The notes: a model not told the origin generated them from the letters alone. DNA of 64,000 nucleotides from a bacterium (GCA_963660905.1 CAVKZJ010000003.1:42160-106159); one strand, 5' to 3'; shown: positions 3,067 to 34,760, numbered from the stretch's first letter. Translations and numbers: made by a program.

Positions 3067-3094
3067 ATCGAATTTGACATAAGGGTTTTCTGAA

Positions 3095-3126: not shown

Positions 3127-3134
3127 TCATTCAT

Positions 3135-4046: not shown

Positions 4047-4099
4047 GAATCTTCTCCTTTCTAGTGAAAACAAGAAACAAAATCATTATAATACAAAGG

Positions 4100-4594: not shown

Positions 4595-4607
4595 GGAGGA
4601 AAAGAAA

Positions 4608-5147
4608 ATGACAAATATTCTGATTGGTTCTGATATTCATGGAAGCTATAAGTTCGCAAAAATATTTTTTGGAAAGGTGGAGAAATATGCTCCGAAGAAG
4701 ATTCTTCTCTGTGGTGATTTTTATTACAATGGAGCAAGAAATGTACCGCCGGAGGAATATTCTCCCAAGGATGTTGTCTCCCTTTTGAATGAATATGCAG
4801 ATAAGATCATTGCGGTGAAAGGAAACTGTGAATCTGAGGTGGACCAGTGGGTAAGCAATTTCCCGATTTCCGATATGGCGACTCTCTATCTCTTCGATAA
4901 GGAAATTCTGATGACGCACGGACATCATTTTTCCTTTGAGAATCTTCCAAAAAATCCTGGTGATATCTTCCTTCAGGGCCATACCCATATCGGTGTTCTG
5001 GAAAAGAAGGAGAATCTGATCTTGATGAATCCGGGAAGCATTTCTCTTCCTAAGGATGGACATCATTCCTATATCCTGATGAATGAAGAAGGAATCAAGC
5101 TTCTTGATCTATTCGACGATCATGTCTATAAGGAACTGAAATTTTAG
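4608..5147 (+). CDS. metallophosphoesterase, YfcE/MJ0936 family (tandem paralog)
   Basis: Same motif set (GSDIHG, GDFYYNG, GNCE, MTHGH, GHTH); AAGGAGGA RBS; 13 nt after the upstream paralog. Confidence 0.8.
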   Translation: MTNILIGSDIHGSYKFAKIFFGKVEKYAPKKILLCGDFYYNGARNVPPEEYSPKDVVSLLNEYADKIIAVKGNCESEVDQWVSNFPISDMATLYLFDKEILMTHGHHFSFENLPKNPGDIFLQGHTHIGVLEKKENLILMNPGSISLPKDGHHSYILMNEEGIKLLDLFDDHVYKELKF

Positions 5148-5207: not shown

Positions 5208-7154
5208 CTATAGCTTTCTCAATTCGTCAAGAAGGGTATCTGGACAGCTGTCCGAAGCCATTCTATAGTCTCCTCTCGGTGAGAGGGTGACACTGCCGAC
5301 TTTCGGACCATCAGGAAGACAGCTTCTCTTGAAATGCTGGCTGAAGAAGCGATGATAGAAATTTTCTAAACTCTTCTTTACATGTTCTTTTGTTTCTTCC
5401 GGATAGGCAAGAAGCGTGAGAATCATGATCTTTTCAGGGGAGAATCCATAGCGGAGGAAATAGAAAAGGAAGAAGTCGTTGAGATCATATTTTCCGATTC
5501 TTTCCTCGGTCTTTTGGGCAATCTTTCCATCCTTATTCGGTGTGAGTTCGGGAGAAATCGGAGTATCAATGATGCTTTTGAGTGTCTTGCTCAATTTTTC
5601 GTCGGCCAAGGTATCGCTATAGGCTTCCACGATGTATTTGACGAGCGTTTTCGGAATCGAGCTGTTGACGGCATACATAGACATATGATCTCCGTTGTAG
5701 GTGCACCAGCCGAGAGCCAATTCGCTGAGGTCTCCTGTTCCGACGACCATTCCCGATTCCATATTGGCAATATCCATCAGGATATAGGTTCGCATTCTTG
5801 CCTGCGCGTTCTCATAGGCCACATCCTTTTCTCCTTCATAGGATAGAGGATGATGGATATCCTTCAGATGCTCTTCGACGGTCTTTCGAATCGGAATCTC
5901 TCGGATTTCGACATCGAGTTCTTTCATGAGGTCGAAGGCATTGTTTTTTGTCAGATTGCTCGTCATTCCTTCACTGGGCATGGTGATGCCGATGATATGG
6001 ATTTCCGGGACGATTTTCTTTGCCTGACTGGCCACAAGAAGGGCTAAAGTGGAATCGAGTCCGCCGGAGATGCCGATGACAAGGTTATGTATCTTGGTGT
6101 TCTTCACTCTCGTGGCCAAGCCATGGGCCTGAATCGAAAGGATTTCAAGACATCTTTCCTTTCTTTCATCTTTCTTATCGGGAACGAAAGGGTTTCGAGT
6201 AATTGGATAATTTTCTTTCTTAAGAGCGCTGACCTTTTCCTCGAGAGATTGCTCGTCCTGGACAAATTTCCTCAGACGGACGGGAATGATCCGATAGCTG
6301 TCGTTTCTGTTTTCGAATGTGGATTGATGCATGCGGTTGTAGGTGGATTTATCGATATCGAGAATTCCGGAAATGGAAGACGGTGTTGTTGGGAAGAAGG
6401 TTTCATTTCGAATGCTTCCATTTTCGACAATCAGATTATGTCCGGAGAAGACAAGATCCTGAGAGGATTCATCAAAGCTGCTCGAGCAATACAGATAGGA
6501 ACAATATAGCGTTGATGACTGCATTCTGACGAGATCGTTTCTATATTTTCTTTTGGCAACATTTTCATCGCTTGCTGAAAGATTGAGAATGATGTTTGCT
6601 CCGTTTAGACAGGCTTTGGTCGAAGGCTTGTCTCCGACCCAGAGATCCTCACAGATTTCCGATGCGATGACAGCCGAAGAGTTCTCATCTTTTAAAAGAA
6701 GGTCGATTCCAAAAGGAACCTCTTCCCCATGGATCGAAATCGTTTTTCCAGTGATTTCTTTTCCAGAGGCAAACCAACGTGCCTCATAGAATTCGCCATA
6801 ATTCGGAATATAGGATTTTGGAACGACACCGATTATTTTCCCGTTAGAGAGATAGACTGCACAATTATAAAGCCGATTCTGAAATAGAAGAGGGGCACCG
6901 ACAACCAAGAGATTTTCCTGATGTGCGGTCATGTCCCTGAGCAGGAATAAGGCTTTTTCGATTTCATCGAAATATGACTTCTGAAAAAAGAGATCCTGAG
7001 CGGTATATCCGATCAGAGAGAGCTCGGGAGTCAAAAGAATCGCCGCGTCTTTCTTTTCGAGATAGAGCTTTTTGATGCTTTCCGTATTGAAATGAATATC
7101 GGCTATCTTCAGTTCAGGGATTAGGCAGGCAGCCTTCAATAGATTAAGGGACAT
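5208..7154 (-). CDS. nadE: glutamine-dependent NAD+ synthetase (N-terminal CN-hydrolase domain plus NadE domain)
   Basis: 648 aa; N-terminal nitrilase-like domain followed by the PP-loop ATPase motif GISGGLDS. Confidence 0.9.
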   Translation of the reverse strand: MSLNLLKAACLIPELKIADIHFNTESIKKLYLEKKDAAILLTPELSLIGYTAQDLFFQKSYFDEIEKALFLLRDMTAHQENLLVVGAPLLFQNRLYNCAVYLSNGKIIGVVPKSYIPNYGEFYEARWFASGKEITGKTISIHGEEVPFGIDLLLKDENSSAVIASEICEDLWVGDKPSTKACLNGANIILNLSASDENVAKRKYRNDLVRMQSSTLYCSYLYCSSSFDESSQDLVFSGHNLIVENGSIRNETFFPTTPSSISGILDIDKSTYNRMHQSTFENRNDSYRIIPVRLRKFVQDEQSLEEKVSALKKENYPITRNPFVPDKKDERKERCLEILSIQAHGLATRVKNTKIHNLVIGISGGLDSTLALLVASQAKKIVPEIHIIGITMPSEGMTSNLTKNNAFDLMKELDVEIREIPIRKTVEEHLKDIHHPLSYEGEKDVAYENAQARMRTYILMDIANMESGMVVGTGDLSELALGWCTYNGDHMSMYAVNSSIPKTLVKYIVEAYSDTLADEKLSKTLKSIIDTPISPELTPNKDGKIAQKTEERIGKYDLNDFFLFYFLRYGFSPEKIMILTLLAYPEETKEHVKKSLENFYHRFFSQHFKRSCLPDGPKVGSVTLSPRGDYRMASDSCPDTLLDELRKL

Positions 7155-7258
7155 GATTCTTCTTTTTCTTTCTTTTCGAAAAAGTATAATCCAAAACCTT
7201 TTCTTTGTCCACAGAATCGAAGGCAGTCATAAGGGTTGATGAACAAAAGATGTCAATC

Positions 7259-7287
7259 TTGACAAAGAGACACAGGGGGGGTAAAAT
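7259..7287 (+). promoter_or_regulatory. sigma-A-like promoter for the LytTR gene (TTGACA, 17-nt spacer, TAAAAT), spacer contains a G7 tract
   Basis: -35 hexamer at 7259-7264, -10 hexamer at 7282-7287, exactly 17 nt between them; GGGGGGG at 7275-7281. Confidence 0.4.
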
Positions 7288-7356
7288 TTCCACGAAAAAT
7301 GCCGTAAGTCGTCTTCTTTTGAGAAGCCGAAGCCGACATTTGGAGGATGGAAAACG

Positions 7357-8067
7357 ATGAAAGTGGCTATTGTCGGAAAGGATATATCCACGTATGAAAC
7401 TCTTGTGGATATTCTCCATGGATATTCTTCAGAAAACCATATGGAGATCGAAATCCAGCAATATGAGCAAGGACATCTGTTTTTGAAAAACCTTTCCCAT
7501 ATCTTTGATTTGGTTTTTATCGACACATCACTAGAAGATATGGACGGATTTGATGTTGCACGGAAATTGAAGGCTTTTGACGACAATGTCTTTCTTATTT
7601 TCACATCAGAGAATGAGAAACTTGCCATCAAGGGATATGAATTGAATGCAGTCGACTTTCTTCTGAAGCCGATTGACCAATCTTATCTTCTTCAGAAATT
7701 GCCTCGTGTCATTCTTTATATTAAGAAGGAGCAGGATAAATATCGAAAGATTATGATCAGCAATGAGAATGGCAGTCTGATTCTCAACAGCTACGAAATC
7801 AAATATGTCGAAATCATCAACCACAGGCTTTTCTATCATACGACCAAGGGTGTCTATGATACATATGGTTCACTTTCTGAAATCGAAAAGATTCTTCCCT
7901 CTATTTTTGTCCGATGCAATCACTGTTATCTTGTCAATCTCAGCTATGTATCCGGCATCAATAAATATACAGTCTATGTCGGAAAAGATGAATTGATGAT
8001 TTCGCATCCGAAGAAAAAGGAATTCCAGGATGCCTTGACGAAATATCTGAAAATGTATGGGCCTTGA
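7357..8067 (+). CDS. LytTR-family response regulator (orphan; no cognate histidine kinase in window)
   Basis: N-terminal receiver-like domain followed by a C-terminal LytTR DNA-binding domain (YEIKYVEI...FVRCNHCYLVNLSYV); GGAGG RBS. Confidence 0.85.
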   Translation: MKVAIVGKDISTYETLVDILHGYSSENHMEIEIQQYEQGHLFLKNLSHIFDLVFIDTSLEDMDGFDVARKLKAFDDNVFLIFTSENEKLAIKGYELNAVDFLLKPIDQSYLLQKLPRVILYIKKEQDKYRKIMISNENGSLILNSYEIKYVEIINHRLFYHTTKGVYDTYGSLSEIEKILPSIFVRCNHCYLVNLSYVSGINKYTVYVGKDELMISHPKKKEFQDALTKYLKMYGP

Positions 8068-8289
8068 TTGGGTGAATAAGAGATATCGAAAGATATCCAA
8101 TTTTTTATGTTGAAAAACACTTTCCGCAAGGATTTGCATTGATTACAGATTCGTGAAAATGACTATACAAATGAATAAATGTGTTAATTATCTTGCTTGA
8201 ATTCATCTTTCTTTGAGAGTGTATCCGCTTACATCTACGAAAATAATACGACAACTTACGAAGCCAAAAGAAGAAGTTAAGCGGTTACA

Positions 8290-8318
8290 TTGATTTACAA
8301 AATTCTTTTTCCTAGAAT
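8290..8318 (+). promoter_or_regulatory. candidate promoter of first GH3 gene (TTGATT, 17-nt spacer, TAGAAT)
   Basis: Hexamers and spacing read directly from the sequence; about 78 nt upstream of the ATG at 8396. Confidence 0.35.
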
Positions 8319-8395
8319 GCATTTGTCGATAAAAGGAACACTCTGTTAGTCCCCAATAACGGTCGTTCCATGGTTTTATTCTAAGGAGGTAACAT

Positions 8396-11300
8396 ATGAA
8401 AAAAACCAAAAAGAAGGCATTCTTCGCTGTTGCTGCACTGATGGGATTTGGACTTTTATCTGGTGAACTTGGTACGTCTGTTACAGGAAAAACTGGGCTG
8501 AAAGGGGCGAATGCAGCATCGACGGGCAAGAAATTCTATTCTGCCTATGCGTCGATGGAAGACGTTGGCGAAGCCGGAAACAAACTCACAAGAGAGATTG
8601 CCGGTGAAGGCATCGTCATGCTGAAGAACAAAGACAATGTTCTTCCGTTCACGAATGTGCACAATGTCACGGTCTTCGGCAAGAACTCGACTGCCACTTC
8701 AATCGGTGGAGGCGGTTCTGGTGCTTCGAAGGGATATTATCCTTCTGCCGGTATCTATGACACTCTTGAGGAAGCGGGATTCAATGTCAACCCTGCCCAG
8801 AAGGCATTCTATGAGGATGACACCCGTTCTGGCACTGCCCGTACATCAGGAGGTATGTTCTCTTCGGGTGGATTCACCATCGGTGAAACCCCAGTTTCGA
8901 GTTATGAGGATTCTGTCAAGGAGACATGGAACACCTATAATGATGCAGCCATCATCACCCTCGTCCGTTCTGGATCTGAAGGTGCCGATGAACCGGTGAC
9001 GGGCGTTGTCGATCATGTCGGTGACAATCCGGTCGATTCGGAAGGAAAGACGATTGATCATCATTATCTTGAACTCTCTGAAAATGAGAAAGACATGATC
9101 AAGATGGTCAAGGAATCCGGAAAGTTCAGCAAGATTGTTGTCGTTCTCAATGCGACGAACGTCATGGAACTTGGTGATTTGCAGGATGATGACATGATTG
9201 ATGCCATGTTGTGGACCGGTGGTGTCGGTGGAACGGGCTTCTATGCCATCGGCGATATTCTCACTGGAAAAGTCAATCCGTCCGGAAAGACGGTCGATGT
9301 CTATCCAAGAGATCTTCTGAAAGATCCGACCTCCCTCAACTTCGGAACCAACGCACAGAATCAGGAAGACAATGCTCAGAACTATTTCCTTTCCCCTGAT
9401 AAGACGGATGCGAATTATGAGTCGAAATACAAAGACGTCTGGTATAGCAAGGATAGAGAAGGCAACTATTCGACGACGGAAGTCGCCAATATCGCTGCAT
9501 ATACCAATTATGAGGAAGGTGTCTACCTTGGCTATAAGTATTATGAAACGATGTTCACCATCAAAGGCGGCGATTCGAGCGAGACAGCCAAGCAGTGGTA
9601 CAAGGAGAATGTCGTTTATCCATTCGGCTATGGCTTGAGCTTCACTAAGTTTGATGTCTCGAAGACGACGGAAGTCTCCTATAATGAAACCACTCATGAC
9701 ATGACGATGGGCGTGAAGGTGAAAAACACGGGTTCCGTTGCTGGCAAGAAGACTGTCCAGATCTATGTCGAAGCACCGTACTTCGAGGGTCAGATTGAAA
9801 AGCCATCCGCTGTCTTGGTCGCTTTTGCAAAGACAAAGATCCTTCAGCCGGGCGAGGAAGAAACACTCACATTGTCCTGGAAGGATACCGATGTTGCTTC
9901 CTATGACTACAACGATGCCAACAACAATGGCTTCAAGGGCTATGAATTGGATGCCGGACAATATAGTTTCAAGATTGCCGATGATTCCCATGATTACTTC
10001 GAAACGGTCACTTGGAATCTGGAAACAGGAAAGAAGTTGACAACTGACGGCTATACAGACAACAATGTCCATAACCTTTTCAGCGATTACATCGCGACGG
10101 ACAACACAACGGATACGACAACAAAGAATCCATATCGTTCCTTGCCGATGGAAGGCGATGGCCTTGTCGTCGAACAGCTTTCGAGAGCAAAGGGCAAGGA
10201 TTTGGCCAATATCAATAAGCCGAAAGCCCATGGAGATGCCGAAAGCACAGTCAAAGGCGATGCCTTAGCCATCATGTCTGGCATTGTCACCGGCGTGAGC
10301 ATGGAAGGAAATGACAACATCAATGGCTACATGCCAAGCAGCATGAAGAAGACCAAGGCGGATGTTGAGGCGGAATTCGGAACAGACTATACGCAAGGCG
10401 ATACGACTGTCACGGAAGATTTCTATTCGCTTGCCGGTGTCGATCCATCCACTGAGGAAGGAAAGAAACTCTACAACAAAGTCATCAACAAGATGAGTTG
10501 GGAAGACCTCTACAAGGCCTTGGATGATTGCGGATGGCATAATGCGGCCATCAAGTCCATCAACAAGCCGCAGACAACCGATGTCGATGGTCCTTCTGCC
10601 ATCTATAGAGTCGACTATCCTGTCGCCTGCACCTTGGCTGCCACCTTCAATATTGATCTGGCTACCAAATTTGGAACCCTCATCGGTGAAGAATCCTTAT
10701 GGGGTATCCGTCCAGGCTGGTATGGCCCTGCCATGGATACACATCGTTCGGCATTCAGCGGACGTAATTTCGAATATTATTCTGAGGATGGTCTCTTGGG
10801 CGGCATGATCGGCGCCTACTCCATCAAGGCTGCTCAGGCGAAAGGCTGCTATGCCTTCATGAAGCACATGGCTTTAAATGACTGCGAAACACAGCGTAAC
10901 GGCAACCATGCCTTCGTTTCTGAACAGGCCATGAGAGAAATTTACTTCAAGCCATTCCGTCTCTCTGTCGAAATCGGCGACTGCAAAGCCGTCATGGGTG
11001 GCATGAACTCTATCGGTTATATTGCCAACTACAACAACACAGCTGAAATGACGTATATGCTCCGTGATGAATGGGGATTCAACGGCTTCACCGAAACGGA
11101 TGCCGGATCCTTCAACTATGGAACCTCTCCATATTCCAATGGCTTCATGGCCAGAGTCGCCGGCATGGATACATTGCTCGGCTTTGGCGGAAGTCCGTCT
11201 GGATTGGGAACTTGGGATGCGACAAAGAAAGTTCCTGTCCAGGACGAAACTGAGTTATGGACTATCTACTATTACTATAGAAAGTCCATGATCAACCTTC

Positions 11301-12196
11301 TCTATGTCACTGCCAATTCTTCCATCACACAGAATGGAATCAGCTTCAGCAAGTGGGATGCTGAGAATGCCACATTCAATGCTCCAGCAGGAACAGCTTT
11401 CAATGAATCCTTGAGAGCCAGCGAAAGCGTCGGCACAACCGATGTCTGGTATGAAGTGACTGATGGAACCTTGCCAGAGGGCATCTCGCTTGACCGCTAT
11501 GGCAACTTCACTGGATCAAGCACAGCCAAGGGAAGCTATACCTTCACCGTCACGATGCATGCGGATGGATGGATCACGCATACGAAGCAGTACACATTGA
11601 ATGTCATCGACGCTTTCCAGATCGATAAGACAGAAATCACCGTCGGTGAAGACTTCGAAGCACAGATTTCCTCCGACTATGTCAAAGCAGAGGGAAGAAC
11701 GACCGTCACCTATATGGATCCGGAAGGAACCTTGCCGGAAGGCTTGACAATTTCCGCGGATGGAAAGATCACAGGAAAAGCCACGAAGAATGGAACCTAT
11801 GTCTTCAAACTCCATGTCATTCAGTTCACTCCTGGAAGCGGCTGGTACACTCCTGCAGTCACCAATGAATATGATCAGGAAATCGTCCTGACCGTCAAGG
11901 GCGGAACAGAAGAACATGTTGTCACTGCCGATGAGGCAAAAGAAGCTGCCGATGCTGCCAAGACTGCTGCTGATGCAGCAAAGACTGCTGCAGATGCAGC
12001 AAAGACGGCTGCTGACACTGCCAAGACAACAGCTGATGAAGCTAAGAAGACTGCCGATGAAGCCAAGACCGCTGCCGAAAGCAAGGCTGAAAATAAAGGC
12101 TGTGGCGGAAGCATCATCGCTGCCTCCTCTGCCTTGGGCGCAATGGCTCTCTTGGGAGTCGCTCTTGCCTTCAAGAAGAAGAGAGAAGAGAAGTAA
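8396..12196 (+). CDS. cell-surface glycoside hydrolase family 3 (domain-permuted) with signal peptide, two Ig-like (He_PIG-type) domains, an A-D-A-A-K-T repeat stalk and a C-terminal TM anchor
   Basis: 1266 aa. The GH3 C-terminal sandwich-like segment (VVVLNATNVMELG...WTGGVGG...GKVNPSGK) and the Fn3-like segment (YPFGYGLSFTKF...VKVKNTGSVAGK) come before the barrel segment. The barrel segment holds a KHMALND (KHF-type) motif and FTETDAGSF with the putative nucleophile Asp. LPEG..S.DG.ITG Ig-like repeats follow. The C-terminal hydrophobic helix is followed by KKKREEK. Confidence 0.85.
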   Translation: MKKTKKKAFFAVAALMGFGLLSGELGTSVTGKTGLKGANAASTGKKFYSAYASMEDVGEAGNKLTREIAGEGIVMLKNKDNVLPFTNVHNVTVFGKNSTATSIGGGGSGASKGYYPSAGIYDTLEEAGFNVNPAQKAFYEDDTRSGTARTSGGMFSSGGFTIGETPVSSYEDSVKETWNTYNDAAIITLVRSGSEGADEPVTGVVDHVGDNPVDSEGKTIDHHYLELSENEKDMIKMVKESGKFSKIVVVLNATNVMELGDLQDDDMIDAMLWTGGVGGTGFYAIGDILTGKVNPSGKTVDVYPRDLLKDPTSLNFGTNAQNQEDNAQNYFLSPDKTDANYESKYKDVWYSKDREGNYSTTEVANIAAYTNYEEGVYLGYKYYETMFTIKGGDSSETAKQWYKENVVYPFGYGLSFTKFDVSKTTEVSYNETTHDMTMGVKVKNTGSVAGKKTVQIYVEAPYFEGQIEKPSAVLVAFAKTKILQPGEEETLTLSWKDTDVASYDYNDANNNGFKGYELDAGQYSFKIADDSHDYFETVTWNLETGKKLTTDGYTDNNVHNLFSDYIATDNTTDTTTKNPYRSLPMEGDGLVVEQLSRAKGKDLANINKPKAHGDAESTVKGDALAIMSGIVTGVSMEGNDNINGYMPSSMKKTKADVEAEFGTDYTQGDTTVTEDFYSLAGVDPSTEEGKKLYNKVINKMSWEDLYKALDDCGWHNAAIKSINKPQTTDVDGPSAIYRVDYPVACTLAATFNIDLATKFGTLIGEESLWGIRPGWYGPAMDTHRSAFSGRNFEYYSEDGLLGGMIGAYSIKAAQAKGCYAFMKHMALNDCETQRNGNHAFVSEQAMREIYFKPFRLSVEIGDCKAVMGGMNSIGYIANYNNTAEMTYMLRDEWGFNGFTETDAGSFNYGTSPYSNGFMARVAGMDTLLGFGGSPSGLGTWDATKKVPVQDETELWTIYYYYRKSMINLLYVTANSSITQNGISFSKWDAENATFNAPAGTAFNESLRASESVGTTDVWYEVTDGTLPEGISLDRYGNFTGSSTAKGSYTFTVTMHADGWITHTKQYTLNVIDAFQIDKTEITVGEDFEAQISSDYVKAEGRTTVTYMDPEGTLPEGLTISADGKITGKATKNGTYVFKLHVIQFTPGSGWYTPAVTNEYDQEIVLTVKGGTEEHVVTADEAKEAADAAKTAADAAKTAADAAKTAADTAKTTADEAKKTADEAKTAAESKAENKGCGGSIIAASSALGAMALLGVALAFKKKREEK
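11923..12083 (+). repeat. imperfect 21-bp (7-aa A-A-D-A-A-K-T) tandem repeats, about 7 units, within the GH3 gene
   Basis: gctgc(c/t)gatgc(t/a)gc(c/a)aagac(t/g) units visible in the DNA; protein reads AADAAKTAADAAKTAADAAKTAADTAKTTADEAKKTADEAKTAAE. Confidence 0.75.
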
Positions 12197-12220
12197 TATT
12201 TGATACGCTTTCAAAAAGGA

Positions 12221-12250
12221 CACCCGATTGAAAAATCGGGTGTCTTCTCT
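12221..12250 (+). terminator. rho-independent terminator after GH3 gene 1
   Basis: GACACCCGATT-gaaaa-ATCGGGTGTC hairpin followed by TTCTCT. Confidence 0.5.
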
Positions 12251-12370
12251 ATATATTCATCACTTACGCTCTAAAAATTCAAAGTTAAGGGATTTGCTTT
12301 CTATCCATGATTTTTTTACTAAAATCAAAGTAAACGCATACATCTTTCTAAAGAAAGGAGATTATTATCT

Positions 12371-13135
12371 ATGAAAAAGAATTTGTTGCCTTTGTTGCTA
12401 TTGCCTTTGCTTGTCTCTTGCGGTGAGACATCCAACAACTCGAATACGAGTTCCACCAAGCCGGCTGATACTGCCGATACAGCCAAGACCACAGAGAATC
12501 AGAATACGACACCTGCTGCCTCCGATACGGCAGCAGACTCGACGGCTGCTCCAACAAGCACGTCCACCGAAGAACCGGGCACCCTTGTCGTGGAAGCAGA
12601 GTTCTCTCCCGATATCGAATGGGCCGAGGATTATCCTGGCTTTTCCGGATCACAGAGCGGAGAACATATCATCGTTCCGGATACAACCGGCGCATTCCAG
12701 GCTTCGAACGGCTACTATGTTTCCTATTTGTATAAGTATGGTGCCTCAATCGGATTTACCATCACAGCCAGCAAGGCCTGCACTGCAAAGCTGACCTGGA
12801 GAATCTCGGGCGAATTCTTCAACAATCAGACCTATACGATGGCAAACAACCAGATTACCATCAATGAGGCACCGGTTGTCTATGCTCAGATTTCGTTTAC
12901 GGACATTCCTTCTCAGACAGAAAAGAAGAGCAAGCCTTTCACGGACAAAGTCTTAGGCACAATCAATTTGGTTGAAGGTGAAAACCACCTTGTCTACACA
13001 ACCACGAACAATAATCGTTTAGGTGGAACAATGTCGGCCACGGCTCCGATTATCGACTGCTTCAAATTGACTGATTTCGGAGATGCTGAATTGGAATTCT
13101 CCGATAAGAAGACGGATTACGACGCTTTCGCATGA
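12371..13135 (+). CDS. lipoprotein with putative carbohydrate-binding (CBM6/35-like) beta-sandwich domain
   Basis: Lipobox LLVSC; Ser/Thr/Ala-rich linker; the globular domain opens with VVEAEF, which resembles CBM6/CBM35 starts. The CBM assignment is an inference. Confidence 0.6.
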   Translation: MKKNLLPLLLLPLLVSCGETSNNSNTSSTKPADTADTAKTTENQNTTPAASDTAADSTAAPTSTSTEEPGTLVVEAEFSPDIEWAEDYPGFSGSQSGEHIIVPDTTGAFQASNGYYVSYLYKYGASIGFTITASKACTAKLTWRISGEFFNNQTYTMANNQITINEAPVVYAQISFTDIPSQTEKKSKPFTDKVLGTINLVEGENHLVYTTTNNNRLGGTMSATAPIIDCFKLTDFGDAELEFSDKKTDYDAFA

Positions 13136-13151
13136 ACGGATGAAAAAACTT

Positions 13152-13182
13152 TGGCCTGCGGGTCAAAGCTTTTTTTATGCCG
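13152..13182 (+). terminator. rho-independent terminator after lipoprotein gene
   Basis: CTTTGGCC-tgcg-GGTCAAAG hairpin (one G-U pair) followed by CTTTTTTT. Confidence 0.5.
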
Positions 13183-13321
13183 AAAAATCCATTGACAACT
13201 TACGCTAGGAAAAAAGAAGTATAAGATAAAAAAATGAAAATGTAAGGGGTTTACCATAGAATATTACCAATCAACTTCTTTTCAATTGGGGAATGAAAAG
13301 CAGGCTGATCAGGGAGGAAAT

Positions 13322-16252
13322 ATGGATAATCAAAATCAAAAAAAACGTAATCCTTTTGCTGTCATTTTCCGACATGTCGGAAGCCGTGTTTGGTTTATCG
13401 TGACAGCTGTTGTCGCTGTTCTTCTGATTGTTGTGACGCCTCTTGCTTTGAGCAGGCAGGTGTTGGGTGGCGTTTTGGATCGACTCTTCGGCGGCGATCG
13501 TGCCATCGCGAAATCAGGTTCGACGGTCACGACGGCCTTTGAACTCGACGAAGATGTCAAGGAAGGGGATAAGGCAAGTGCCCAGGAACATGGAAACAAA
13601 GTCAACAATGAACTTTGTGAAGAGGGCATGGTTCTTTTGAAAAATAAGAATAATGCTCTTCCAGCCAAGACAGACTCCACAAAGAAAATTTCTGTCTTCG
13701 GACGCAATTCCATCAATATGGCAATTGCTGGATCCGGTTCGGCTGGCAATTCGACGGATAGCAAGACGAAAGATATTTATGATTCCTTGACGGATGCTGG
13801 CTATGAAGTCAACCCGACGTTGAAGGACTTCTATAAGAATGATAAGACGGAACGTTCTTCCAATCCGGGTATGGATTCCGGAGGCTCGGCGACATTGAAC
13901 GTCGGTGAGACACCGATTGCGAATTATACGGATTCGGTCAAGTCCACGTTCACTTCCTATTCTGATATGGCAATCATCTTCCTCACCCGTATCGGTGGCG
14001 AAGGATTCGATCTTCCAAGAGCCCAGCCGGGTGACTCATCCAAGACTTTCCTTGATCTCGACAAGGATGAGGAAGCCATGATCAACATGGTCACTTCAGC
14101 AGGATTCAAGAAAGTCGTTGTCTTGGTCAATGCGGCCAACCAGCTCAACTGCACAGCCTTAGAGGAAAATGATAAGATCGATGGTATTTTATGGATTGGT
14201 TTCCCAGGGGCCCAGGGAACCATGGCTGTCGGAAAGATTCTCAATGGCAGTGTGAACCCATCTGGACATCTCACCGACACGTATGTCAAGGACTTCAAGT
14301 CGATTCCTTCGTATTACAACTTCGGTGACAATTCCCAGTGTGAAGGCATCGGAGACTATGGCGATTCGTTCCTGATCAATTCGGGCGGAAAACTTAGAAA
14401 TTCTCTTTATTATTTCACCAACTATGAAGAAGGTGTCTATATCGGCTATCGCTATTATGAGACCAGAGGCGAAAACAATGAGAATTGGTATACGCAGAAT
14501 GTTCTCTATCCTTTCGGATATGGTCTCAGTTATTCGACATTCGAATGGACGATTACCAATGAAAGTTCTCTCAATGGCAAGGAATTGACTAAAGATCCAT
14601 TTGATGTCAAGGTGAAAGTCACCAACACATCCGATGTCGCTGGCAAGGATGTCGTTCAGATCTATATGGGCGGAACCTATTATGCCGGTGGAATCGAAAA
14701 ATCTTCCAAGGTACTTGTCGGCTTTGCCAAGACAGGACTTCTTGAGCCTGGCAAGTCAGAGGAACTCACCATCAACATCGATCCATATTATCTTGCCAAC
14801 TATGACTACAATGATGCAAATAAGAATGATTTCAAGGGCTATGAACTCGATAAGGGTGCCTATTCCTTGTATGTCGCCTCGACAGCTCATGATTCCTCAA
14901 GAAAGATTTCGATGAATTGTGAAAATGGACTGAAGTTCGAAAATGACAATGTCACTGGAACGAAAGTCGAAAATCATTTTGATGGATCAGATTCGAATTG
15001 TCAGTCGACGCTGTCGAGAAATGATTGGGAAGGAACATTCCCCGCTCCCTCGACGCAGGAAGAAAGAACCATCGATACGAAGTTCCGCGATCTTCTTAAG
15101 AACAACAATACCTCCGTGGATGATGCCAACCCTTATGTCAATGGAACCAAGACGGCGGAAATGCCGACCTATGGTGCCGATAATGGCATGAAGCTCATCG
15201 ACTTGCAGGGCAAGGATTTCGATGATCCGTTGTGGGACAAGCTTCTTGATCAGACGACCTATGATGAACAGCTGACCATGTATCTTGACGCTGGCTTCCA
15301 TACCGAAAAGATGGATTCCATCACGAAGCCTACCACCATCGATGCCGATGGCCCGGTTGGATTGACCGCATTCATGGGAGACCCGACCATCAACAATACC
15401 GTCATGTATTGCTGTGAAGTCATCACGGCCTCGACATGGAATGTCGACCTCCTTGAGAAATTAGGTGAATCGGTCGGCAATGAAGGTCTTGTTGGTCAGA
15501 ATGGTGTTCCGTATACCGGCTGGTATGCGCCTGCCATGAATCTCCACCGCAATCCATTCGGTGGAAGATGCTGTGAATATTTCTCTGAAGATCCATTCCT
15601 TTCCGGCATGATGGGTGCCTATGAAGTCAAGGGTGCCAACAAGAAGGGCATGACAACCTACTTGAAGCATTTTGTCGGAAATGAAGGCGAAACACACCGC
15701 GACGCCAATGGCGACTGCACGTTCGTCAATGAGCAGGCTCTTCGTGAACTCTATCTCAGACCATTCGAGATCACTGTCAAAGTCGGAAAGAGCCGTGGCA
15801 TCATGACCTCCTTCAACCGTATCGGAACCCGTTGGTCTGGTGCGACCTATAGTCTGACCACAACCATTCTGAGAGAAGAATGGGGATTCCACGGCGCTGT
15901 CATCACCGACTTCAATACACATCACAACAAAGGTGACTACATGCAGGTCAAGCCGGCTCTCTATGCCGGTGGAACGCTCGACCTCTGCTCACAGACGGCC
16001 GATAGTTCTCTCTTCGATTCGAAGAATGCGACGGATTGTCTGATGCTCAGAAATGCGACACATGAGACACTCTATGCTGTCTGCAATTCGAACATCCTTG
16101 GCGTTGAAATCGATCATTATGCGATGGCCTATTGGAAGATCGTTCTCATGATCGTCGATATCGCTGTTCCGGTCGGATTGGTCACTTGGGGATTCTTTGC
16201 AATCCGCAAGGCCTATAAGGACGAAAAGACGAAAGCAGCAGAAGAGAAGTAA
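13322..16252 (+). CDS. membrane-anchored glycoside hydrolase family 3 (domain-permuted) paralog 2, N-terminal and C-terminal TM helices
   Basis: Start chosen at MDNQNQ because of the AGGGAGGA RBS; N-terminal signal-anchor VWFIVTAVVAVLLIVV; motifs YPFGYGLSYSTF, KHFVGNEGETHRD and AVITDFNT; C-terminal TM helix followed by a basic tail. Confidence 0.85.
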   Translation: MDNQNQKKRNPFAVIFRHVGSRVWFIVTAVVAVLLIVVTPLALSRQVLGGVLDRLFGGDRAIAKSGSTVTTAFELDEDVKEGDKASAQEHGNKVNNELCEEGMVLLKNKNNALPAKTDSTKKISVFGRNSINMAIAGSGSAGNSTDSKTKDIYDSLTDAGYEVNPTLKDFYKNDKTERSSNPGMDSGGSATLNVGETPIANYTDSVKSTFTSYSDMAIIFLTRIGGEGFDLPRAQPGDSSKTFLDLDKDEEAMINMVTSAGFKKVVVLVNAANQLNCTALEENDKIDGILWIGFPGAQGTMAVGKILNGSVNPSGHLTDTYVKDFKSIPSYYNFGDNSQCEGIGDYGDSFLINSGGKLRNSLYYFTNYEEGVYIGYRYYETRGENNENWYTQNVLYPFGYGLSYSTFEWTITNESSLNGKELTKDPFDVKVKVTNTSDVAGKDVVQIYMGGTYYAGGIEKSSKVLVGFAKTGLLEPGKSEELTINIDPYYLANYDYNDANKNDFKGYELDKGAYSLYVASTAHDSSRKISMNCENGLKFENDNVTGTKVENHFDGSDSNCQSTLSRNDWEGTFPAPSTQEERTIDTKFRDLLKNNNTSVDDANPYVNGTKTAEMPTYGADNGMKLIDLQGKDFDDPLWDKLLDQTTYDEQLTMYLDAGFHTEKMDSITKPTTIDADGPVGLTAFMGDPTINNTVMYCCEVITASTWNVDLLEKLGESVGNEGLVGQNGVPYTGWYAPAMNLHRNPFGGRCCEYFSEDPFLSGMMGAYEVKGANKKGMTTYLKHFVGNEGETHRDANGDCTFVNEQALRELYLRPFEITVKVGKSRGIMTSFNRIGTRWSGATYSLTTTILREEWGFHGAVITDFNTHHNKGDYMQVKPALYAGGTLDLCSQTADSSLFDSKNATDCLMLRNATHETLYAVCNSNILGVEIDHYAMAYWKIVLMIVDIAVPVGLVTWGFFAIRKAYKDEKTKAAEEK

Positions 16253-16274
16253 AAAGACGATAACTTATCTATAG

Positions 16275-16305
16275 GGCTAAGGAGAGGCTTCCTTAGCCCT
16301 TTCTT
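16275..16305 (+). terminator. hairpin terminator after GH3 paralog 2
   Basis: AGGGCTAAGG-agaggcttc-CTTAGCCCT hairpin followed by TTCTT; the T-run is weak. Confidence 0.4.
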
Positions 16306-16310
16306 AAAGA

Positions 16311-16721
16311 ATGATGCTCAAGAAAATCAGATCTCATCCAATCAGCAGCCTCTTTCTCTTCTTCTCCTGGATTCTCTCTTTTTTATCGATTCTTTTTCTC
16401 TTTCTTTTTATTCCTCTGGAATGGAAAGGAATGCTTTGTGTTTGCTTTCTCTTTCTTTTTCTTGGAATCAGCATTTCTTCCTTCTTCGTGAAGGAGAATC
16501 TATCCTTCCTTCTTTCTCTTTTCTGTCCTGTTCTTCTTTCCATTTCTCTTGGCCTTCTTGTGTATTGCACGGTGTATGACTTTGTCGATTTCTTCCAAGG
16601 CATTGCGATGTTTGGAAATCCTGCTCTTGCACCATTTGATTTTGCAATCCTTCTTTTTCTTCTTCTTTCCTTAATCAGTTTCTTTCTCTTTTTCTTTCTG
16701 GATTGTCATCATGAAAAATAA
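16311..16721 (+). CDS. small highly hydrophobic Phe/Leu-rich protein (about 4 predicted TM segments), possibly translationally coupled to GH3 paralog 3
   Basis: 136-aa ORF in a CT-rich, low-complexity region; its stop overlaps the ATG of the downstream gene by 11 nt, and that gene has no RBS of its own; it could instead be a non-coding leader. Confidence 0.35.
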   Translation: MMLKKIRSHPISSLFLFFSWILSFLSILFLFLFIPLEWKGMLCVCFLFLFLGISISSFFVKENLSFLLSLFCPVLLSISLGLLVYCTVYDFVDFFQGIAMFGNPALAPFDFAILLFLLLSLISFFLFFFLDCHHEK

Positions 16722-19680
16722 AAAGTCTGCCGTTTTGTCATCTCTGTTTCTTTCTTTTTCCATCCTCCTTCTTTTTGTGTTTCTGATTTTTAATGAGAAC
16801 CAAGATAGTGTCAACAATTTTCTGCATATCACCACCTCGAAGGTGGTCAATGAGGATGATGCCTCTTCTGCTCTTTATTATGAACCGGATATCGGAGATC
16901 ATTCTCTTTCTGATGAGAATTTCGATGAACTCGAAAGGCTCTGCCGAGAGGAAGGGATCGAGGAGGAAACGGAAGGCGCTGTTCTTCTGTACAATGAGAA
17001 CGAAGCCCTCCCTCTGAAAGAGAAAAAAAGGATTACGCTCTTAGGCCATGCGAGTGTCAATCCGGTCTATAAGGCAAGCTCTGCAGGAAACTATGTGACA
17101 GAAGAAAGACCGTATCGCATCGACTTGAAGATGGCTATGGAGAATAATGGCTTTCTTATCAATGAGGAAGTCTATCAGGCGTTGCAGAAAGGAACAGCAA
17201 AAAGAAGGACATTGCCGATACCATCCAATCCATCTATGCAAGGCTATTCCGCATCCTTGAGTGAGGAGCCTCTTTCGTTTTATCAGAAATTGGAGTCTTC
17301 TTTTGAAGGCTATAGGGATTGCTGCATCATCACGCTTTCTCGTGTCGGTTCAGAAGGAGTCGACCTGCTGATGGATGACGTGGATGATGATGGGGTGAGC
17401 ATTCTTTCCTCATTGGCTCTTCATCAGAATGAGGAGGCATTGCTTTCCTTTGCTCGGGAGAAGTTCTCCAAGGTGATTGTGCTTCTGAATTCTTCGAATC
17501 AGATGGAAATCGAGAAAATAAAAGAATATGCGGATGCTATCATGGCGATCGGCCAACCGGGTCTGACAGGCTTTCAGGGAGTGGCGGATCTTCTGTGCGG
17601 AAAGGCAAATCCAAGCGGAAAGCTTGTCGACACGTATGCGGTCAACTCCTTATCTTCCCCGGCTGTCGTCAATTCCGGAACGAGAACACCTTTCTTTGAA
17701 AACGTCTCTTCCATGGATAAGAACATGACCATCAAGGAAAAAGCTAAGCTAGTATCTTTTCAGGCGGAGAACATTTATGTCGGATATAAATATTATGAAA
17801 CGAGGTATGCGGATTGTATCCTCAACCGTTTTTCAGCAAAAAGCGATGTCGGATCATCTGATCATCAGGAATGGAATTATGCAAAAGAGATTTCCTATCC
17901 TTTTGGATATGGATTAAGCTATACGACCTTTGATCAGGAAATCATCGATTCCTCAGTATCGAAAAAGGAAATCACCCTGAAAGTCCGCGTTCGGAATACA
18001 GGATCCGTTTCTGGGAAGGATGTTGTCCAGGTGTATGCCTCAACGCCCTATGGGGAATATGAAAAGGATAATGACGTCGAGAAAAGTGCCATCGTCCTTG
18101 TCGGATTCTCAAAGACAAAGGAACTTTTGCCGAATGAGGAAGAGATCCTGATGATTTCGATTGATCCTTATTTCCTTTCAAGCTACGACGCTTATCAAGC
18201 CAAGACCTATATTCTTTCTGAAGGATATTATTTCCTTTCCATCGGAAAGGATTGCCATGATGCTCTCAATCAGATTCTATCCTTTCAGAATCGGGAAGGC
18301 CTTTTTGATGAGGAAGGAAAGGGATACACTAGTGTAAAACGAAATGTTGTCTCATTTTCATGGAATTTTGATAAAGAAACATTTTCTATAAGCAATGGAA
18401 AAAAGGTGACCAATCTCTTTTCTGATTGTGATATTCATTCCTATAAGGACAAAAAGGAATACACCTATCTCTCTCGAAAGGATTATCAAAACACATATCC
18501 TGTTTCCCAGACAAGTGTTTCTGTCAATGATGAAATGATGGATTCTCTTCGAGGTGAATTCTATCAGGCGAATTCTTCCTTTGATGTTCTTCCTGAATCT
18601 CAGAATGAAAATATCCCGTTGATTGCTCTGAAGGGAGTTCCTCTTGATGATCCATTATGGGAAAAGTTTATCAATCAGGCGAGTTTAGATGATTTAGCCC
18701 TGACGACAGCGGAATCCTTCACTTGTCCGAGCATCGCATCACTTTCACAGCCTGAGGTTTATACAGGGGATGGCATGGATTCATTGGGAAGGACCTATTT
18801 TTATCAGGATGGGTCGAAGATGGAAACAATGACTTTTCCATGCAAGAACATTCTCACATCGACATGGAACGAATCTCTTTATGAGAAAAGAGGAAATCTC
18901 ATGGGAAACGAATCCCTGTTTACGAAATCCTTTGAGAATTATTGCATCGGGCCGAACCTTCATCGGACTCCTTTCGGTGGAAGAAATTTCGAATATATGT
19001 CTGAAGATAGCCATATGACTTATTTGGCCAGCATCAAAGAAATTCAGGCGATGGAGAAACTAGGCGTTCATGCGGCACCGAAGCATTTTGCCGGCAATGA
19101 TCAGGAGACAGGAAGAGAAGGAGTGAGCGTCTTCTTCAATGAACAGGCTTTCCGAGAAAATGATCTGCGTGCTTTCGAAGGAGCCGTCAAGAAGGGAAAA
19201 TGTCAAGGCATCATGCAGAGTTTTGAGAGAATCGGACTGACTTTTGCATCCTCCTCGTATGCTCTCAACACGTCTCTTTTAAGAGAAGAATGGGGATTTC
19301 AAGGCAATATCGTGACAGATGCCACGTATGGAGCGACCAGCGGATATAAAGGACATGTCAGAGAGATTCTCTCAAGCGGAACCAATCAGTTCTGCTTGGA
19401 TGGCAATGCCATAGCCGGGAAAAGAATCGTGAAATATATAAAGGAAGAAAATGACCTTGCATTATATCATCTTCTTCTTGAATCGGCGAAGAATTGGGAA
19501 TATCAGATTGTCAATTCCTGTGCAATGAATGGAATTGCCAAGACATCCAAAATCGTAAAAATCGTACCCTATTGGTTCATTCTTTTCATTTCGCTGATTG
19601 CTTTCTTCATGTTGCTTTCCTTGTTCTTCTTCGCATGGTTCATATGGAAAAACAAAAAGCTGGCAAAACGCCAGCTTTGA
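16711..19680 (+). CDS. membrane-anchored glycoside hydrolase family 3 (domain-permuted) paralog 3, N-terminal and C-terminal TM helices
   Basis: 989 aa; motifs YPFGYGLSYTTF, KHFAGNDQETGRE and NIVTDATYG; N-terminal TM SAVLSSLFLSFSILLLFVFLIF; C-terminal TM helix followed by KNKKLAKRQL; more AT-rich than paralogs 1 and 2. Confidence 0.8.
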   Translation: MKNKKSAVLSSLFLSFSILLLFVFLIFNENQDSVNNFLHITTSKVVNEDDASSALYYEPDIGDHSLSDENFDELERLCREEGIEEETEGAVLLYNENEALPLKEKKRITLLGHASVNPVYKASSAGNYVTEERPYRIDLKMAMENNGFLINEEVYQALQKGTAKRRTLPIPSNPSMQGYSASLSEEPLSFYQKLESSFEGYRDCCIITLSRVGSEGVDLLMDDVDDDGVSILSSLALHQNEEALLSFAREKFSKVIVLLNSSNQMEIEKIKEYADAIMAIGQPGLTGFQGVADLLCGKANPSGKLVDTYAVNSLSSPAVVNSGTRTPFFENVSSMDKNMTIKEKAKLVSFQAENIYVGYKYYETRYADCILNRFSAKSDVGSSDHQEWNYAKEISYPFGYGLSYTTFDQEIIDSSVSKKEITLKVRVRNTGSVSGKDVVQVYASTPYGEYEKDNDVEKSAIVLVGFSKTKELLPNEEEILMISIDPYFLSSYDAYQAKTYILSEGYYFLSIGKDCHDALNQILSFQNREGLFDEEGKGYTSVKRNVVSFSWNFDKETFSISNGKKVTNLFSDCDIHSYKDKKEYTYLSRKDYQNTYPVSQTSVSVNDEMMDSLRGEFYQANSSFDVLPESQNENIPLIALKGVPLDDPLWEKFINQASLDDLALTTAESFTCPSIASLSQPEVYTGDGMDSLGRTYFYQDGSKMETMTFPCKNILTSTWNESLYEKRGNLMGNESLFTKSFENYCIGPNLHRTPFGGRNFEYMSEDSHMTYLASIKEIQAMEKLGVHAAPKHFAGNDQETGREGVSVFFNEQAFRENDLRAFEGAVKKGKCQGIMQSFERIGLTFASSSYALNTSLLREEWGFQGNIVTDATYGATSGYKGHVREILSSGTNQFCLDGNAIAGKRIVKYIKEENDLALYHLLLESAKNWEYQIVNSCAMNGIAKTSKIVKIVPYWFILFISLIAFFMLLSLFFFAWFIWKNKKLAKRQL

Positions 19681-19688: not shown

Positions 19689-20606
19689 TTACTTCGCCTT
19701 GTAGAAATATCTTAGTAGGCTTTTGAAATATTCGTCAATCGGTGCATAGAATGTCATTCTCTTCAGGGTTCCTGGATGGATCAGAGATAAGGAATAGGCA
19801 TGGAGAGCCTGACCTTTTGATGCGACATCCTCTCTTCTTTTTCCGTAAAGAGGATCGCCGACAATGGGATATCCGATATAGGCAAGATGGGCTCTGATCT
19901 GATGGGTTCTTCCGGTTTCGAGTGTCACTTTCAGAAGGGAGACCTTGCCATTGTTGGCTAAAAGCTGACAATGGGTGATGGCATCTCTTCCCTTGTAGAT
20001 GTCGACTTCGGCTTTTCTGTGCGTATGGTTCGGTCTTGTCAGGGGAGCATCGATGCGGAATTTCTTGTGTTCCACATTTCCATAGACCAAAGCGAGATAG
20101 GTGCGATGGAACTCGCCTTCGCGAATTTCGTTCTGAAGAATGGTCTGGGATTCGATGTTGTTGGCAATGGCAAGCAGTCCAGAGGTGTCCTTATCGATTC
20201 TATGGACGATGCCAGGTCGGTTGTTTTCCTCGTCGTTGGGATCGAATTCGAATTTATCGTCCTGCATGAGATAGTTGACCAGGGTGTCATCATTGTGCCC
20301 GGGTGCTGGATGGACGACCATACCGCGCGGTTTGTTGAGAATGGAGATGTCCTCATCCTGATAGACGAAATCGAGATCGATTTTTTCCTTTGCCACTGCG
20401 ACGGCCGGCTTCTTTTCTTCGAGGACATAGGAGATTTCCTGATCCGGGGCCACTTTATAGGAAGCGGAGGAAACCATTTTCCCGTCGACAAAGACATTTT
20501 CTGATTTGATGAGCTTGCTCACTTGGGAGCGGGATAGCCCGCTAAGAGAAGAAAGGACGATATCGAGTCGTCCCTGAATATCACTTTTGAATGTTTTTGT
20601 TTCCAT
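19689..20606 (-). CDS. rluD: 23S rRNA pseudouridine synthase, RluA/RluD family
   Basis: S4 domain at the N-terminus, HRIDKDTSGLL catalytic motif, RTHQIRAH motif; AAGGAGA RBS; conserved lspA-rluD adjacency. Confidence 0.9.
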   Translation of the reverse strand: METKTFKSDIQGRLDIVLSSLSGLSRSQVSKLIKSENVFVDGKMVSSASYKVAPDQEISYVLEEKKPAVAVAKEKIDLDFVYQDEDISILNKPRGMVVHPAPGHNDDTLVNYLMQDDKFEFDPNDEENNRPGIVHRIDKDTSGLLAIANNIESQTILQNEIREGEFHRTYLALVYGNVEHKKFRIDAPLTRPNHTHRKAEVDIYKGRDAITHCQLLANNGKVSLLKVTLETGRTHQIRAHLAYIGYPIVGDPLYGKRREDVASKGQALHAYSLSLIHPGTLKRMTFYAPIDEYFKSLLRYFYKAK

Positions 20607-21330: not shown

Positions 21331-21333
21331 AGA

Positions 21334-34756: not shown

Positions 34757-34760
34757 AAGT

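Follow-up and report, generated by a model that had tools for sequence, protein, structure and literature searches.

Three permuted GH3 genes, a CBM35-like lipoprotein and a LytTR-type regulator without a linked kinase: probably one lineage's version of a widespread Bacillota cassette

We analysed a 64 kb stretch of bacterial DNA, called the window throughout, with positions counted from its first letter. Between nadE and the rluD-lspA-ileS genes, six genes lie on the plus strand: a LytTR-type regulator, three large glycoside hydrolase family 3 (GH3) genes of permuted domain order, here named P1, P2 and P3, a lipoprotein gene between P1 and P2, and a small hydrophobic open reading frame (ORF) between P2 and P3. 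Two metallophosphoesterases are also among the flanking genes. The features of the locus, with lengths in amino acids (aa), nucleotides (nt) or base pairs (bp), are these:

5208-7154, minus strand: nadE, the upstream flank
7357-8067, plus strand: LytTR regulator, 236 aa (Pfam Response_reg 1.7e-13, LytTR 1.1e-16)
8252-8281, plus strand: putative LytTR operator of P1, CAACTTACG, 12-nt spacer, GAAGTTAAG, 31 nt upstream of the -10 hexamer TAGAAT (8313-8318)
8396-12196, plus strand: P1, permuted GH3, 1266 aa (Pfam, hydropathy, repeat search)
12219-12244, plus strand: hairpin downstream of P1, 11-bp stem, weak T-tract
12260-12289, plus strand: putative LytTR operator of the lipoprotein gene, TCACTTACG, 12-nt spacer, AAAGTTAAG, 30 nt upstream of the -10 hexamer TAAAAT (12320-12325)
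12371-13135, plus strand: lipoprotein, 254 aa (lipobox, AlphaFold2 model, Foldseek)
13149-13178, plus strand: intrinsic terminator of the lipoprotein gene, 8-bp stem (hairpin itself 13149-13168) and then CTTTTTTTAT
13196-13225, plus strand: putative LytTR operator of P2, CAACTTACG, 12-nt spacer, AAGTATAAG, 31 nt upstream of the -10 hexamer TAGAAT (13257-13262)
13322-16252, plus strand: P2, permuted GH3, 976 aa (Pfam, AlphaFold2 model, hydropathy)
16273-16300, plus strand: hairpin downstream of P2, 11-bp stem, 6-nt loop, poor T-tract TTCTTAAAG (read from the sequence)
16311-16721, plus strand: hydrophobic ORF, 136 aa, overlapping the P3 start by 11 nt
16711-19680, plus strand: P3, permuted GH3, 989 aa (Pfam, hydropathy), no LytTR operator upstream
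19656-19678, minus strand: hairpin over the P3 stop codon, T-run on the minus strand
19689-24075, minus strand: rluD-lspA-ileS, the downstream flank (lspA 20581-21330, ileS 21334-24075)

ORF calls bore out the gene inventory of a first-pass annotation of this DNA, including the 1266 aa of P1 and the 989 aa of P3; P2, however, comes to 976 aa instead of the 977 given there, and the 136-aa ORF at 16311-16721 had been left out. The longest ORF of P2 extends to 988 aa from a TTG at 13286, and the likely start is the ATG at 13322 behind AGGGAGG, giving the 976-aa product. The annotation had also credited each gene with its own terminator. A hairpin does follow each of the four larger genes (P1, lipoprotein, P2, P3), but the T-tract is good after that of the lipoprotein gene alone, and the hairpin over the P3 stop codon suits rluD, whose terminator it most likely is; it may act bidirectionally. 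The P2 hairpin is a possible leaky terminator. The stem of the P1 hairpin is preserved by compensatory change (GATT/AATC to GG/CC) in L001, one of 85 loci of relatives (designated by L-numbers) that together with the window made up the 86 sequences scanned. Conserved flanks were found in L001 alone when the fetched loci were compared for synteny.

In P1, P2 and P3 alike, Pfam placed Glyco_hydro_3_C first, the Fn3-like domain next and Glyco_hydro_3 last, with all matches above the gathering scores, which secured the GH3 identity that had been proposed for the three genes. The sandwich, Fn3-like and barrel domains span residues 73-380, 453-531 and 741-924 in P1, 115-388, 455-532 and 715-902 in P2 (988-aa numbering), and 91-404, 437-514 and 708-891 in P3. 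Alignment of the domain order, which the first-pass annotation had set as a check on its own proposal, came out permuted and not in the conventional barrel-then-sandwich order. When P2 was compared with PDB sequences, canonical GH3 beta-glucosidases matched as two separate, swapped pieces, and the same-order matches were two entries, 5k6l and 5wug. Structure modelling of the enzymes covered P2, for which AlphaFold2 (AF2) returned a model with a pLDDT of 81.7 and a pTM of 0.86. This model aligned with 5wug and 5k6m over 887-938 columns (E about 1e-47) and with canonical-order GH3 structures over about 450-490 columns only, approximately half of the chain. For the modelled P2, the structural alignment is a direct confirmation of the permutation. 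The sandwich/Fn3/barrel order thus stands on the Pfam coordinates in all three enzymes and on the full-length match of the P2 model to 5K6L and 5WUG.

The three paralogs have diverged considerably, with pairwise identities of 37% (P1/P2), 34% (P2/P3) and 32% (P1/P3), and P2 is 95% identical to its ortholog in L001 and 60% to that in L002. Because P1-like and P2-like proteins form separate orthologous groups, the array, as judged from these sequences, did not arise by recent triplication on the spot but was inherited as an old pair; P3 belongs to a third, more distant lineage. Across an alignment of 23 sequences including P1-P3, the acid/base Glu, the nucleophile Asp and the subsite -1 Asp, Arg and Lys-His occupy invariant columns. 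The corresponding residues are E195/D731/R784/K823-H824/D902 in P1 (catalytic pair E195 and D902), E227/D676/R743/K782-H783/D863 in P2 (E227 and D863) and E215/D687/R752/K791-H792/D870 in P3 (E215 and D870), and the catalytic Asp and Glu line up with D242 and E458 of TnBgl3B. GH3 is a family of exo-acting glycosidases, and the domain order, the P2 model match and the invariant catalytic residues indicate that P1, P2 and P3 are likely active retaining exo-glycosidases.

Hydropathy analysis located one hydrophobic segment near each end of P2 (25-43 and 940-958) and of P3 (8-26 and 956-974), in agreement with the double anchoring put forward for these two paralogs at the outset. Basic residues lie on the N-terminal side of the first helix and on the C-terminal side of the last, and by the positive-inside rule both termini would therefore be cytoplasmic and the enzyme body outside. 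The N-terminal segments comprise 19-21 residues, lack a small-residue cleavage motif after them and are most likely signal anchors. Since the point at which the permutation would open the chain is the canonical barrel-to-sandwich linker, the two new termini should lie next to each other, and the terminal helices of P2 and P3 could thus pair as a single two-helix anchor.

P1 is built differently. Its N-terminal segment is weaker and shorter, its C-terminal segment spans 1240-1258, and the barrel is followed by two He_PIG immunoglobulin (Ig)-like domains (Pfam), an Ala-rich stalk, the motif GCGGS, a helix and a KKKREEK tail, the stalk being encoded by a 21-nt (7-residue) tandem unit at 11945-12078. 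Hydropathy, the two He_PIG matches and the 21-nt repeat fit the signal peptide, Ig-like domains, repeat stalk and C-terminal anchor that had been ascribed to this protein. Inspection of the sequence ahead of the C-terminal helices found no LPXTG motif. The P1 C-terminus (12098-12196), with G-C-G-[GS], a helix and a Lys/Arg tail, recurs in the P1-like proteins of L001, L006, L010, L012, L019, L021, L028 and L059, among them several distant Bacillota. By analogy, this ending recalls three-part sorting signals such as MYXO-CTERM, in which the Cys may be lipidated. A search for a known C-terminal sorting signal in NCBIfam gave only a weak, sub-threshold match to a MYXO-CTERM-anchored family (E 0.0016), and none was assigned.

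The lipoprotein carries the lipobox LLVSC, read from the sequence as MKKNLLPLLLLPLLVS-C17; the Cys column is conserved in close relatives, and lspA is present at 20581-21330. A Ser/Thr/Ala-rich linker (about 18-66) leads into a predicted beta-sandwich (about 70-250) resembling the carbohydrate-binding module (CBM) families CBM35 and CBM6. In the AF2 model, most 10-residue blocks of the folded part reached a pLDDT of 78-97, and three were at 65-67. Foldseek searches against the PDB returned the CBM35 structures 2w47 and 2w1w as top matches (E about 1e-6, template modelling (TM) score on target 0.72-0.75), with further matches including 2vzp and 2cdo (probability 1.00, E 1e-6 to 1e-4, TM 0.6-0.75), and all of the top 21 matches were CBM35, CBM6 or closely related binding modules. 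Pfam CBM_6 and CBM_35 matched neither the window protein nor the relatives scanned; with the Pfam model PF14683, 'CBM-like', six of 20 relatives gave a weak match (best 3.6e-6) and the window protein gave none. Its 'xEAE' strand at the N-terminal end and its 'ID[CY]' strand at the C-terminal end are features that we take to resemble those of CBM35 and CBM6. While the fold is that of 2W47, 2W1W and 2CDO, the lipoprotein is only 14-20% identical to such modules and is free-standing rather than part of an enzyme. Taken at the level of the modelled fold, these matches support its earlier designation as a probable CBM, with glycan binding predicted. A word-indexed search found 22 relatives, and a profile search of every cluster representative (clusters at 50% identity) found 1024 at E <= 0.001. 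As far as sequence comparison goes, the lipoprotein belongs to a real family of moderate size, for which the Pfam and NCBIfam models scanned include none of its own.

The ORF between P2 and P3 probably encodes a small protein with about four membrane helices. Its frame and stop are kept in L001, where the product is 135 aa long and 67% identical, with 35 synonymous and 44 non-synonymous codon differences; TVYDFVDFFQGI..MFGNP and the CHHEK end are common to both copies. It has no Pfam or NCBIfam match and, among the loci examined, occurs besides the window in L001 alone.

The promoters of P1, the lipoprotein gene and P2 have a common layout, namely a 9-mer ending TTACG, 12 nt, and a 9-mer ending T(T/A)TAAG, with 30-31 nt between the second box and the -10 hexamer TA(G/A)AAT at all three. 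Two 9-bp direct repeats with a 12-bp spacer are the accepted LytTR consensus (PMC2766830), and at the AgrA promoters P2 and P3 (not the genes so named here) the repeats lie just upstream of the promoter (PMC4227749). On the plus strand, ACTTACG occurs at three sites in the 64 kb, all of them in these promoters. In L001 the boxes are kept at all three promoters while the spacers differ, and L002 shows this layout ahead of four cassette genes. A regular expression for the operator, applied to 1.49 Mb, gave 29 matches against 19.1 expected from shuffles; ten lay upstream of cassette genes, and these ten fall in three genomes, those of the window, L001 and L002. We also looked for a wider operator across 80+ loci, but a relaxed expression found only the window, L001 and L002, the remaining matches equalling the shuffle expectation, so the motif as defined here is clade-specific. 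Because a LytTR-type operator precedes P1, the lipoprotein gene and P2, the regulator is probably functionally tied to these enzymes. Autoregulation through a reverse-strand ACTTACG at 7303-7309, upstream of the regulator, was considered and rejected, the segment being deleted in L001.

A further element was noticed in these promoters. At 13244-13256, between the second LytTR box and the -10 hexamer of P2, lies a conserved G/C-rich element, GTAAGGGGTTTAC, and GAAACCCCTTTTA or GTAAACCCCTTAC, partly its reverse complement, stands at the matching place in all four cassette promoters of L002 (upstream of 4871, 8935, 9950 and 13120). This element could be the site of a second protein or part of the promoter.

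The regulator consists of a receiver (PF00072, 51.1 bits) and a C-terminal LytTR domain (PF04397, 61.3 bits). Its receiver keeps Asp56, Ser/Thr83-84 and Lys104, and in place of the acidic pair after the first strand (IV[ED]D[ED]) it has G-K (IVGKD). We compared 56 aligned regulators, 50 of which have an adjacent HATPase_c_5 kinase. The acidic pair E/D-D is kept in all 50 and in 4 others without an adjacent kinase, the exception among these 54 being the D-C of L013; G-K is found in the 2 left, those of the window and L001, both without an adjacent kinase. In the L001 regulator, the phospho-acceptor Asp is moreover replaced by Glu. Identity to the kinase-paired L002 regulator is 47%, and the receiver half has diverged more quickly than the LytTR half. 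Relative to L001, the regulator shows 46 non-synonymous and 68 synonymous codon differences, compared to 53 and 253 for P2. A Pfam scan and tblastn with 40 related kinases found no histidine kinase in the 64 kb, upholding the initial description of a LytTR regulator without a kinase, and the L001 locus has none either. Related kinases were also used in tblastn to look for a kinase pseudogene, and neither the stretch from the regulator to P1 nor the rest of the window yielded a remnant. By its sequence, the receiver is degenerate, its phospho-acceptor pocket not being intact. Given the missing kinase, the G-K pair and the faster divergence of the receiver, the simplest interpretation is a regulator that has come to act without phosphorylation.

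To place the locus in a wider context, ORFs were called in the 85 loci and the window and then searched with the window proteins and one relative's kinase. Roughly 55 of 80 loci encode both a LytTR regulator and a HATPase_c_5 (AgrC-like) kinase no more than 10 kb from a GH3 gene, in most cases immediately upstream of it. Different families share the gene order regulator, kinase, P1-like GH3, lipoprotein-like protein, P2-like GH3, which is found in L002-L005, L007, L008, L010, L011, L013, L017, L018, L028 and L070. The first-pass annotation had described the permuted order as known from a few rumen and clostridial enzymes, but the implied rarity does not hold: crystal structures are known, and a homolog search returned at least 8000 permuted GH3 relatives at E <= 0.001. 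All of the 120 best homologs share the Pfam order and a similar length, and 106 of these 120 have both terminal hydrophobic segments. Among species-representative genomes, P2-like genes occur in Erysipelotrichaceae, Acholeplasmataceae, Lachnospiraceae, Oscillospiraceae, Christensenellaceae, Streptococcus suis and Gracilibacillus, and also in the Actinomycetota Demequina, Arachnia and Microbacterium. In L002 and L003 (13120-16772 and 17328-22895), the third cassette enzyme is a canonical-order GH3 of 837 aa under the same operator, and permuted and canonical GH3s would therefore share one regulon there; this gene is followed by a 375-aa protein without matches and then by a second regulator-kinase pair with a large permuted GH3.

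Several of these elements have known counterparts. The permuted subfamily was defined structurally in 2016 with GlyA1 from a rumen metagenome (Ramirez-Escudero et al., PMC5104943). GlyA1 (PDB 5K6L-5K6O) has the same order of (alpha/beta)6 sandwich, FnIII and (alpha/beta)8 barrel, with, as in P1-P3, the acid/base Glu carried by the sandwich and the nucleophile Asp by the barrel, and the P2 model aligned with it over 887-905 columns (E about 1e-45 to 1e-47, TM on target 0.77-0.78). It differs in that identity is about 26% and that it carries its own extra soluble C-terminal domain. The GlyA1 paper mentions neither transmembrane segments nor a signal peptide (PMC5104943), whereas P2 and P3 have a predicted helix at each end and P1 is extended by He_PIG domains, a stalk and an anchor. 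Further permuted members have been characterised since, including BrGH3A (PMC11233000). Like P1-P3 in domain order, BrGH3A and the Paenibacillus barengoltzii enzyme (5WUG/5WVP) are permuted GH3 beta-glucosidases, and 5WUG was the top structural match of the P2 model (938 columns, E 8e-48). In contrast to P1-P3, which are predicted to be membrane-tethered at the surface, BrGH3A lacks a signal peptide, and an intracellular role was proposed for it (PMC11233000).

On the regulatory side, LytTR regulators adjoin secreted, C-terminally anchored GH3 enzymes in three polysaccharide-utilisation loci (PULs) of Butyrivibrio proteoclasticus B316, PUL7, PUL21 and PUL33, and Kelly et al. 2010 read this pairing as carbohydrate sensing and control (PMC2914790). 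These loci resemble the present one in pairing a LytTR regulator with a membrane-anchored GH3; the paper gives the pairing one sentence, without operator, permutation or double anchor, and the passage that deals with it presents the regulators as two-component response regulators and leaves the kinases unnamed (PMC2914790). The AgrA/AgrC system (LytTR/HPK10) provides a second parallel, with its receiver and LytTR domain, the HATPase_c_5 kinase seen in the relatives and an operator of 9-bp repeats with a 12-bp spacer. It differs in that the targets at our locus are glycosidase genes, the window is without a kinase and the receiver has lost its acidic pocket, and Pfam annotation of the window found no autoinducing-peptide or AgrB-like genes. 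Compared to the related loci examined, where a kinase is adjacent, the absence of a kinase together with a degenerate receiver sets the locus apart. The permuted subfamily, its large membership and the LytTR/anchored-GH3 pairing are already known, whereas the recurrent Bacillota cassette, the 9-bp/12-bp operator and the kinase-less G-K regulator lineage are new. The finding is ordinary in kind, a clear example of a widespread gene cassette and not a new system.

In our assessment, the locus is probably one lineage's version of this Bacillota cassette, in which surface permuted GH3s and a CBM35-like lipoprotein stand under a LytTR-type regulator. The regulator would activate three separate transcription units (P1, lipoprotein, P2) by predicted binding and without phosphorylation, and P3 and the 136-aa ORF would be expressed by transcription running on past the weak hairpin of P2 or from a promoter that went unrecognised. 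The catalytic bodies would face outward and trim terminal sugars off oligosaccharides at the cell surface, where the lipoprotein is predicted to hold the glycan. Several observations count against this picture. The operator is defined in three related genomes only, the L001 intergenic regions are 83-88% identical overall, which limits their value as footprints, and P3 and the 136-aa ORF are without an operator. Cleavage and topology were called from hydropathy and the positive-inside rule alone, and the side-by-side termini were deduced from the canonical GH3 chain order. The GH3s reached no NCBIfam equivalog cutoff, their best scores being 195-265 bits, for an alpha-L-arabinopyranosidase model, compared to a cutoff of 1300; a substrate assignment from these equivalogs was rejected, all scores being far under the cutoffs, and the sugar specificity of P1-P3 is consequently not assignable from sequence. 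Finally, the analysis spans 64 kb, and a kinase encoded elsewhere could act on the regulator, which keeps Asp56 and Lys104.

This last point leads to the alternative that the regulator is still phosphorylated at Asp56, by an outside kinase or by acetyl phosphate, and that the locus responds to a signal. The retained Asp56, Ser/Thr 83-84 and Lys104 would fit this idea, as would the fact that the 64 kb come from a contig of at least 110 kb and that related genomes often hold several regulator-kinase pairs (L002, L016, L046, L069, L072). We nevertheless consider it somewhat unlikely, given that the Mg2+-binding acidic pair has become G-K in 2 of the 56 regulators, both without an adjacent kinase, that the acceptor Asp is Glu in the sister strain L001, and that the receiver evolves faster than the LytTR domain, with a non-synonymous to synonymous ratio of 46/68 in the regulator against 53/253 in P2. 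A more radical idea makes the anchored GH3s part of sensing, their helices contacting the AgrC-like kinase or their sugar product serving as its ligand. AgrC-like (HPK10) kinases are classically peptide-pheromone receptors, and here one adjoins an anchored GH3 in roughly 55 of 80 loci in two phyla, often with a separate regulator-kinase pair for each GH3 (L069, L016); peptide-pheromone genes were not noticed beside the kinases, though no dedicated search was made. All of this is neighbourhood evidence, and substrate-induced regulation explains the linkage equally well. The window enzymes, moreover, remain under purifying selection despite the absence of a kinase and so seem to function without it, which makes a role in sensing very doubtful. 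The broader proposition that AgrC-like kinases were recruited to glycan sensing, with the doubly anchored permuted GH3 as obligate partner, and that kinase loss locked the regulon on here, strikes us as decidedly improbable. If true, it would affect many Bacillota and Actinomycetota, GH3 would act as co-sensor or signal generator, and the window would be a natural experiment.

The remaining alternatives concern what the enzymes are for. The clustering of several glycoside hydrolases, a CBM-like surface protein and a regulator might point to a complete Gram-positive PUL that binds, degrades and imports beta-glucan or xylan, the label chosen by the first-pass annotation, and GlyA1 reportedly hydrolyses lichenan besides oligosaccharides. 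The PUL definition of Sheridan et al. 2016 is said to require one or more degrading enzymes, a transport system and a regulator. Published PUL tables have columns for glycoside hydrolases, transport and regulators (PMC5320581). A regulator is present (7357-8067, with operators at three promoters), and so are three GH3s, but the cluster includes no endo-acting family and GH3 enzymes act from chain ends only. No sugar transporter of the ATP-binding cassette (ABC), phosphotransferase (PTS) or major facilitator (MFS) type was found by Pfam in or beside the cluster, between nadE and ileS or among the other window ORFs scanned, a scan that left out six smaller ORFs in 875-5147, three of them identified solely through their L001 counterparts. 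A complete PUL is therefore improbable, and the label is not retained. The lack of a linked transporter would also suit a role in remodelling glycans of the bacterium's own surface (capsule, glycolipid or wall polymer) instead of dietary ones, as would tethering at both ends, which limits reach from the membrane. The closest characterised relatives, however, cleave plant oligosaccharides as beta-glucosidases and beta-xylosidases (PMC5104943, PMC11233000), the long stalk of P1 would hold the enzyme off the membrane, a CBM35-like partner is typical of plant-glycan systems, and Pfam found no glycosyltransferase or capsule genes nearby; self-remodelling is hardly probable.

Read as a variant of the recurrent cassette, the locus suggests that uncultured gut Bacilli display exo-glycosidases by means of transmembrane helices and lipid anchors. 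It draws attention to a large, biochemically untouched branch of membrane-tethered permuted GH3s tied to a conserved LytTR/AgrC-like pair, and the cassette, the operator and the kinase loss together frame the question of which signal is read by an AgrC-type kinase that has no evident pheromone gene. The understanding of GH3 enzymes and of PULs is unchanged. As for the organism, the isoleucyl-tRNA synthetase (IleRS) of the window is 68% identical to that of a 'Bacilli bacterium' metagenome-assembled genome and 57% to that of Clostridium sp. CAG:288. The latter is presumably a member of the uncultured gut order RFN20, and the placement of the window organism is tentative.

A scan of the whole window with Rfam matched three tRNAs only (3138-3209, 27023-27103 and 47583-47656), with no riboswitch or leader in the locus, and in the region upstream of ileS (24076-24588) no T-box leader reached the gathering score. 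At 31063-34688, 11-15 kb from the GH3 array, lie hexuronate catabolism genes encoding a 2-keto-3-deoxy-6-phosphogluconate (KDPG) aldolase, an AraC-type regulator, the mannonate dehydratase UxuA and a short-chain dehydrogenase; uronic acids are among the ligands of some CBM35 modules. The adjoining region 34752-39747 (plus strand) is probably a restriction or defence island, in which two ORFs without matches (34752-35222 and 35209-36132) precede an McrBC-like pair, an AAA_5 protein at 36129-38087 (PADLOC PDC-M26A, 3.6e-41) and a DUF2357 protein at 38071-39747. When PADLOC was run on the unannotated large ORFs, this McrB-like protein was the sole match. Further downstream, 47845-51234 (plus strand) encodes a single 1129-aa protein in which an ABC ATPase is fused to an FtsX-type permease, as in MacB. 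Three ORFs at 54005-58303 (minus strand), 58326-59663 and 59667-62411 (both plus strand), encoding 1432, 445 and 914 aa, gave no Pfam (1e-4) or PADLOC match. Ser, Thr, Asn and Asp are abundant in the 1432-aa product, and its N-terminal part includes a hydrophobic segment; on account of this composition and segment it looks like a large surface protein.

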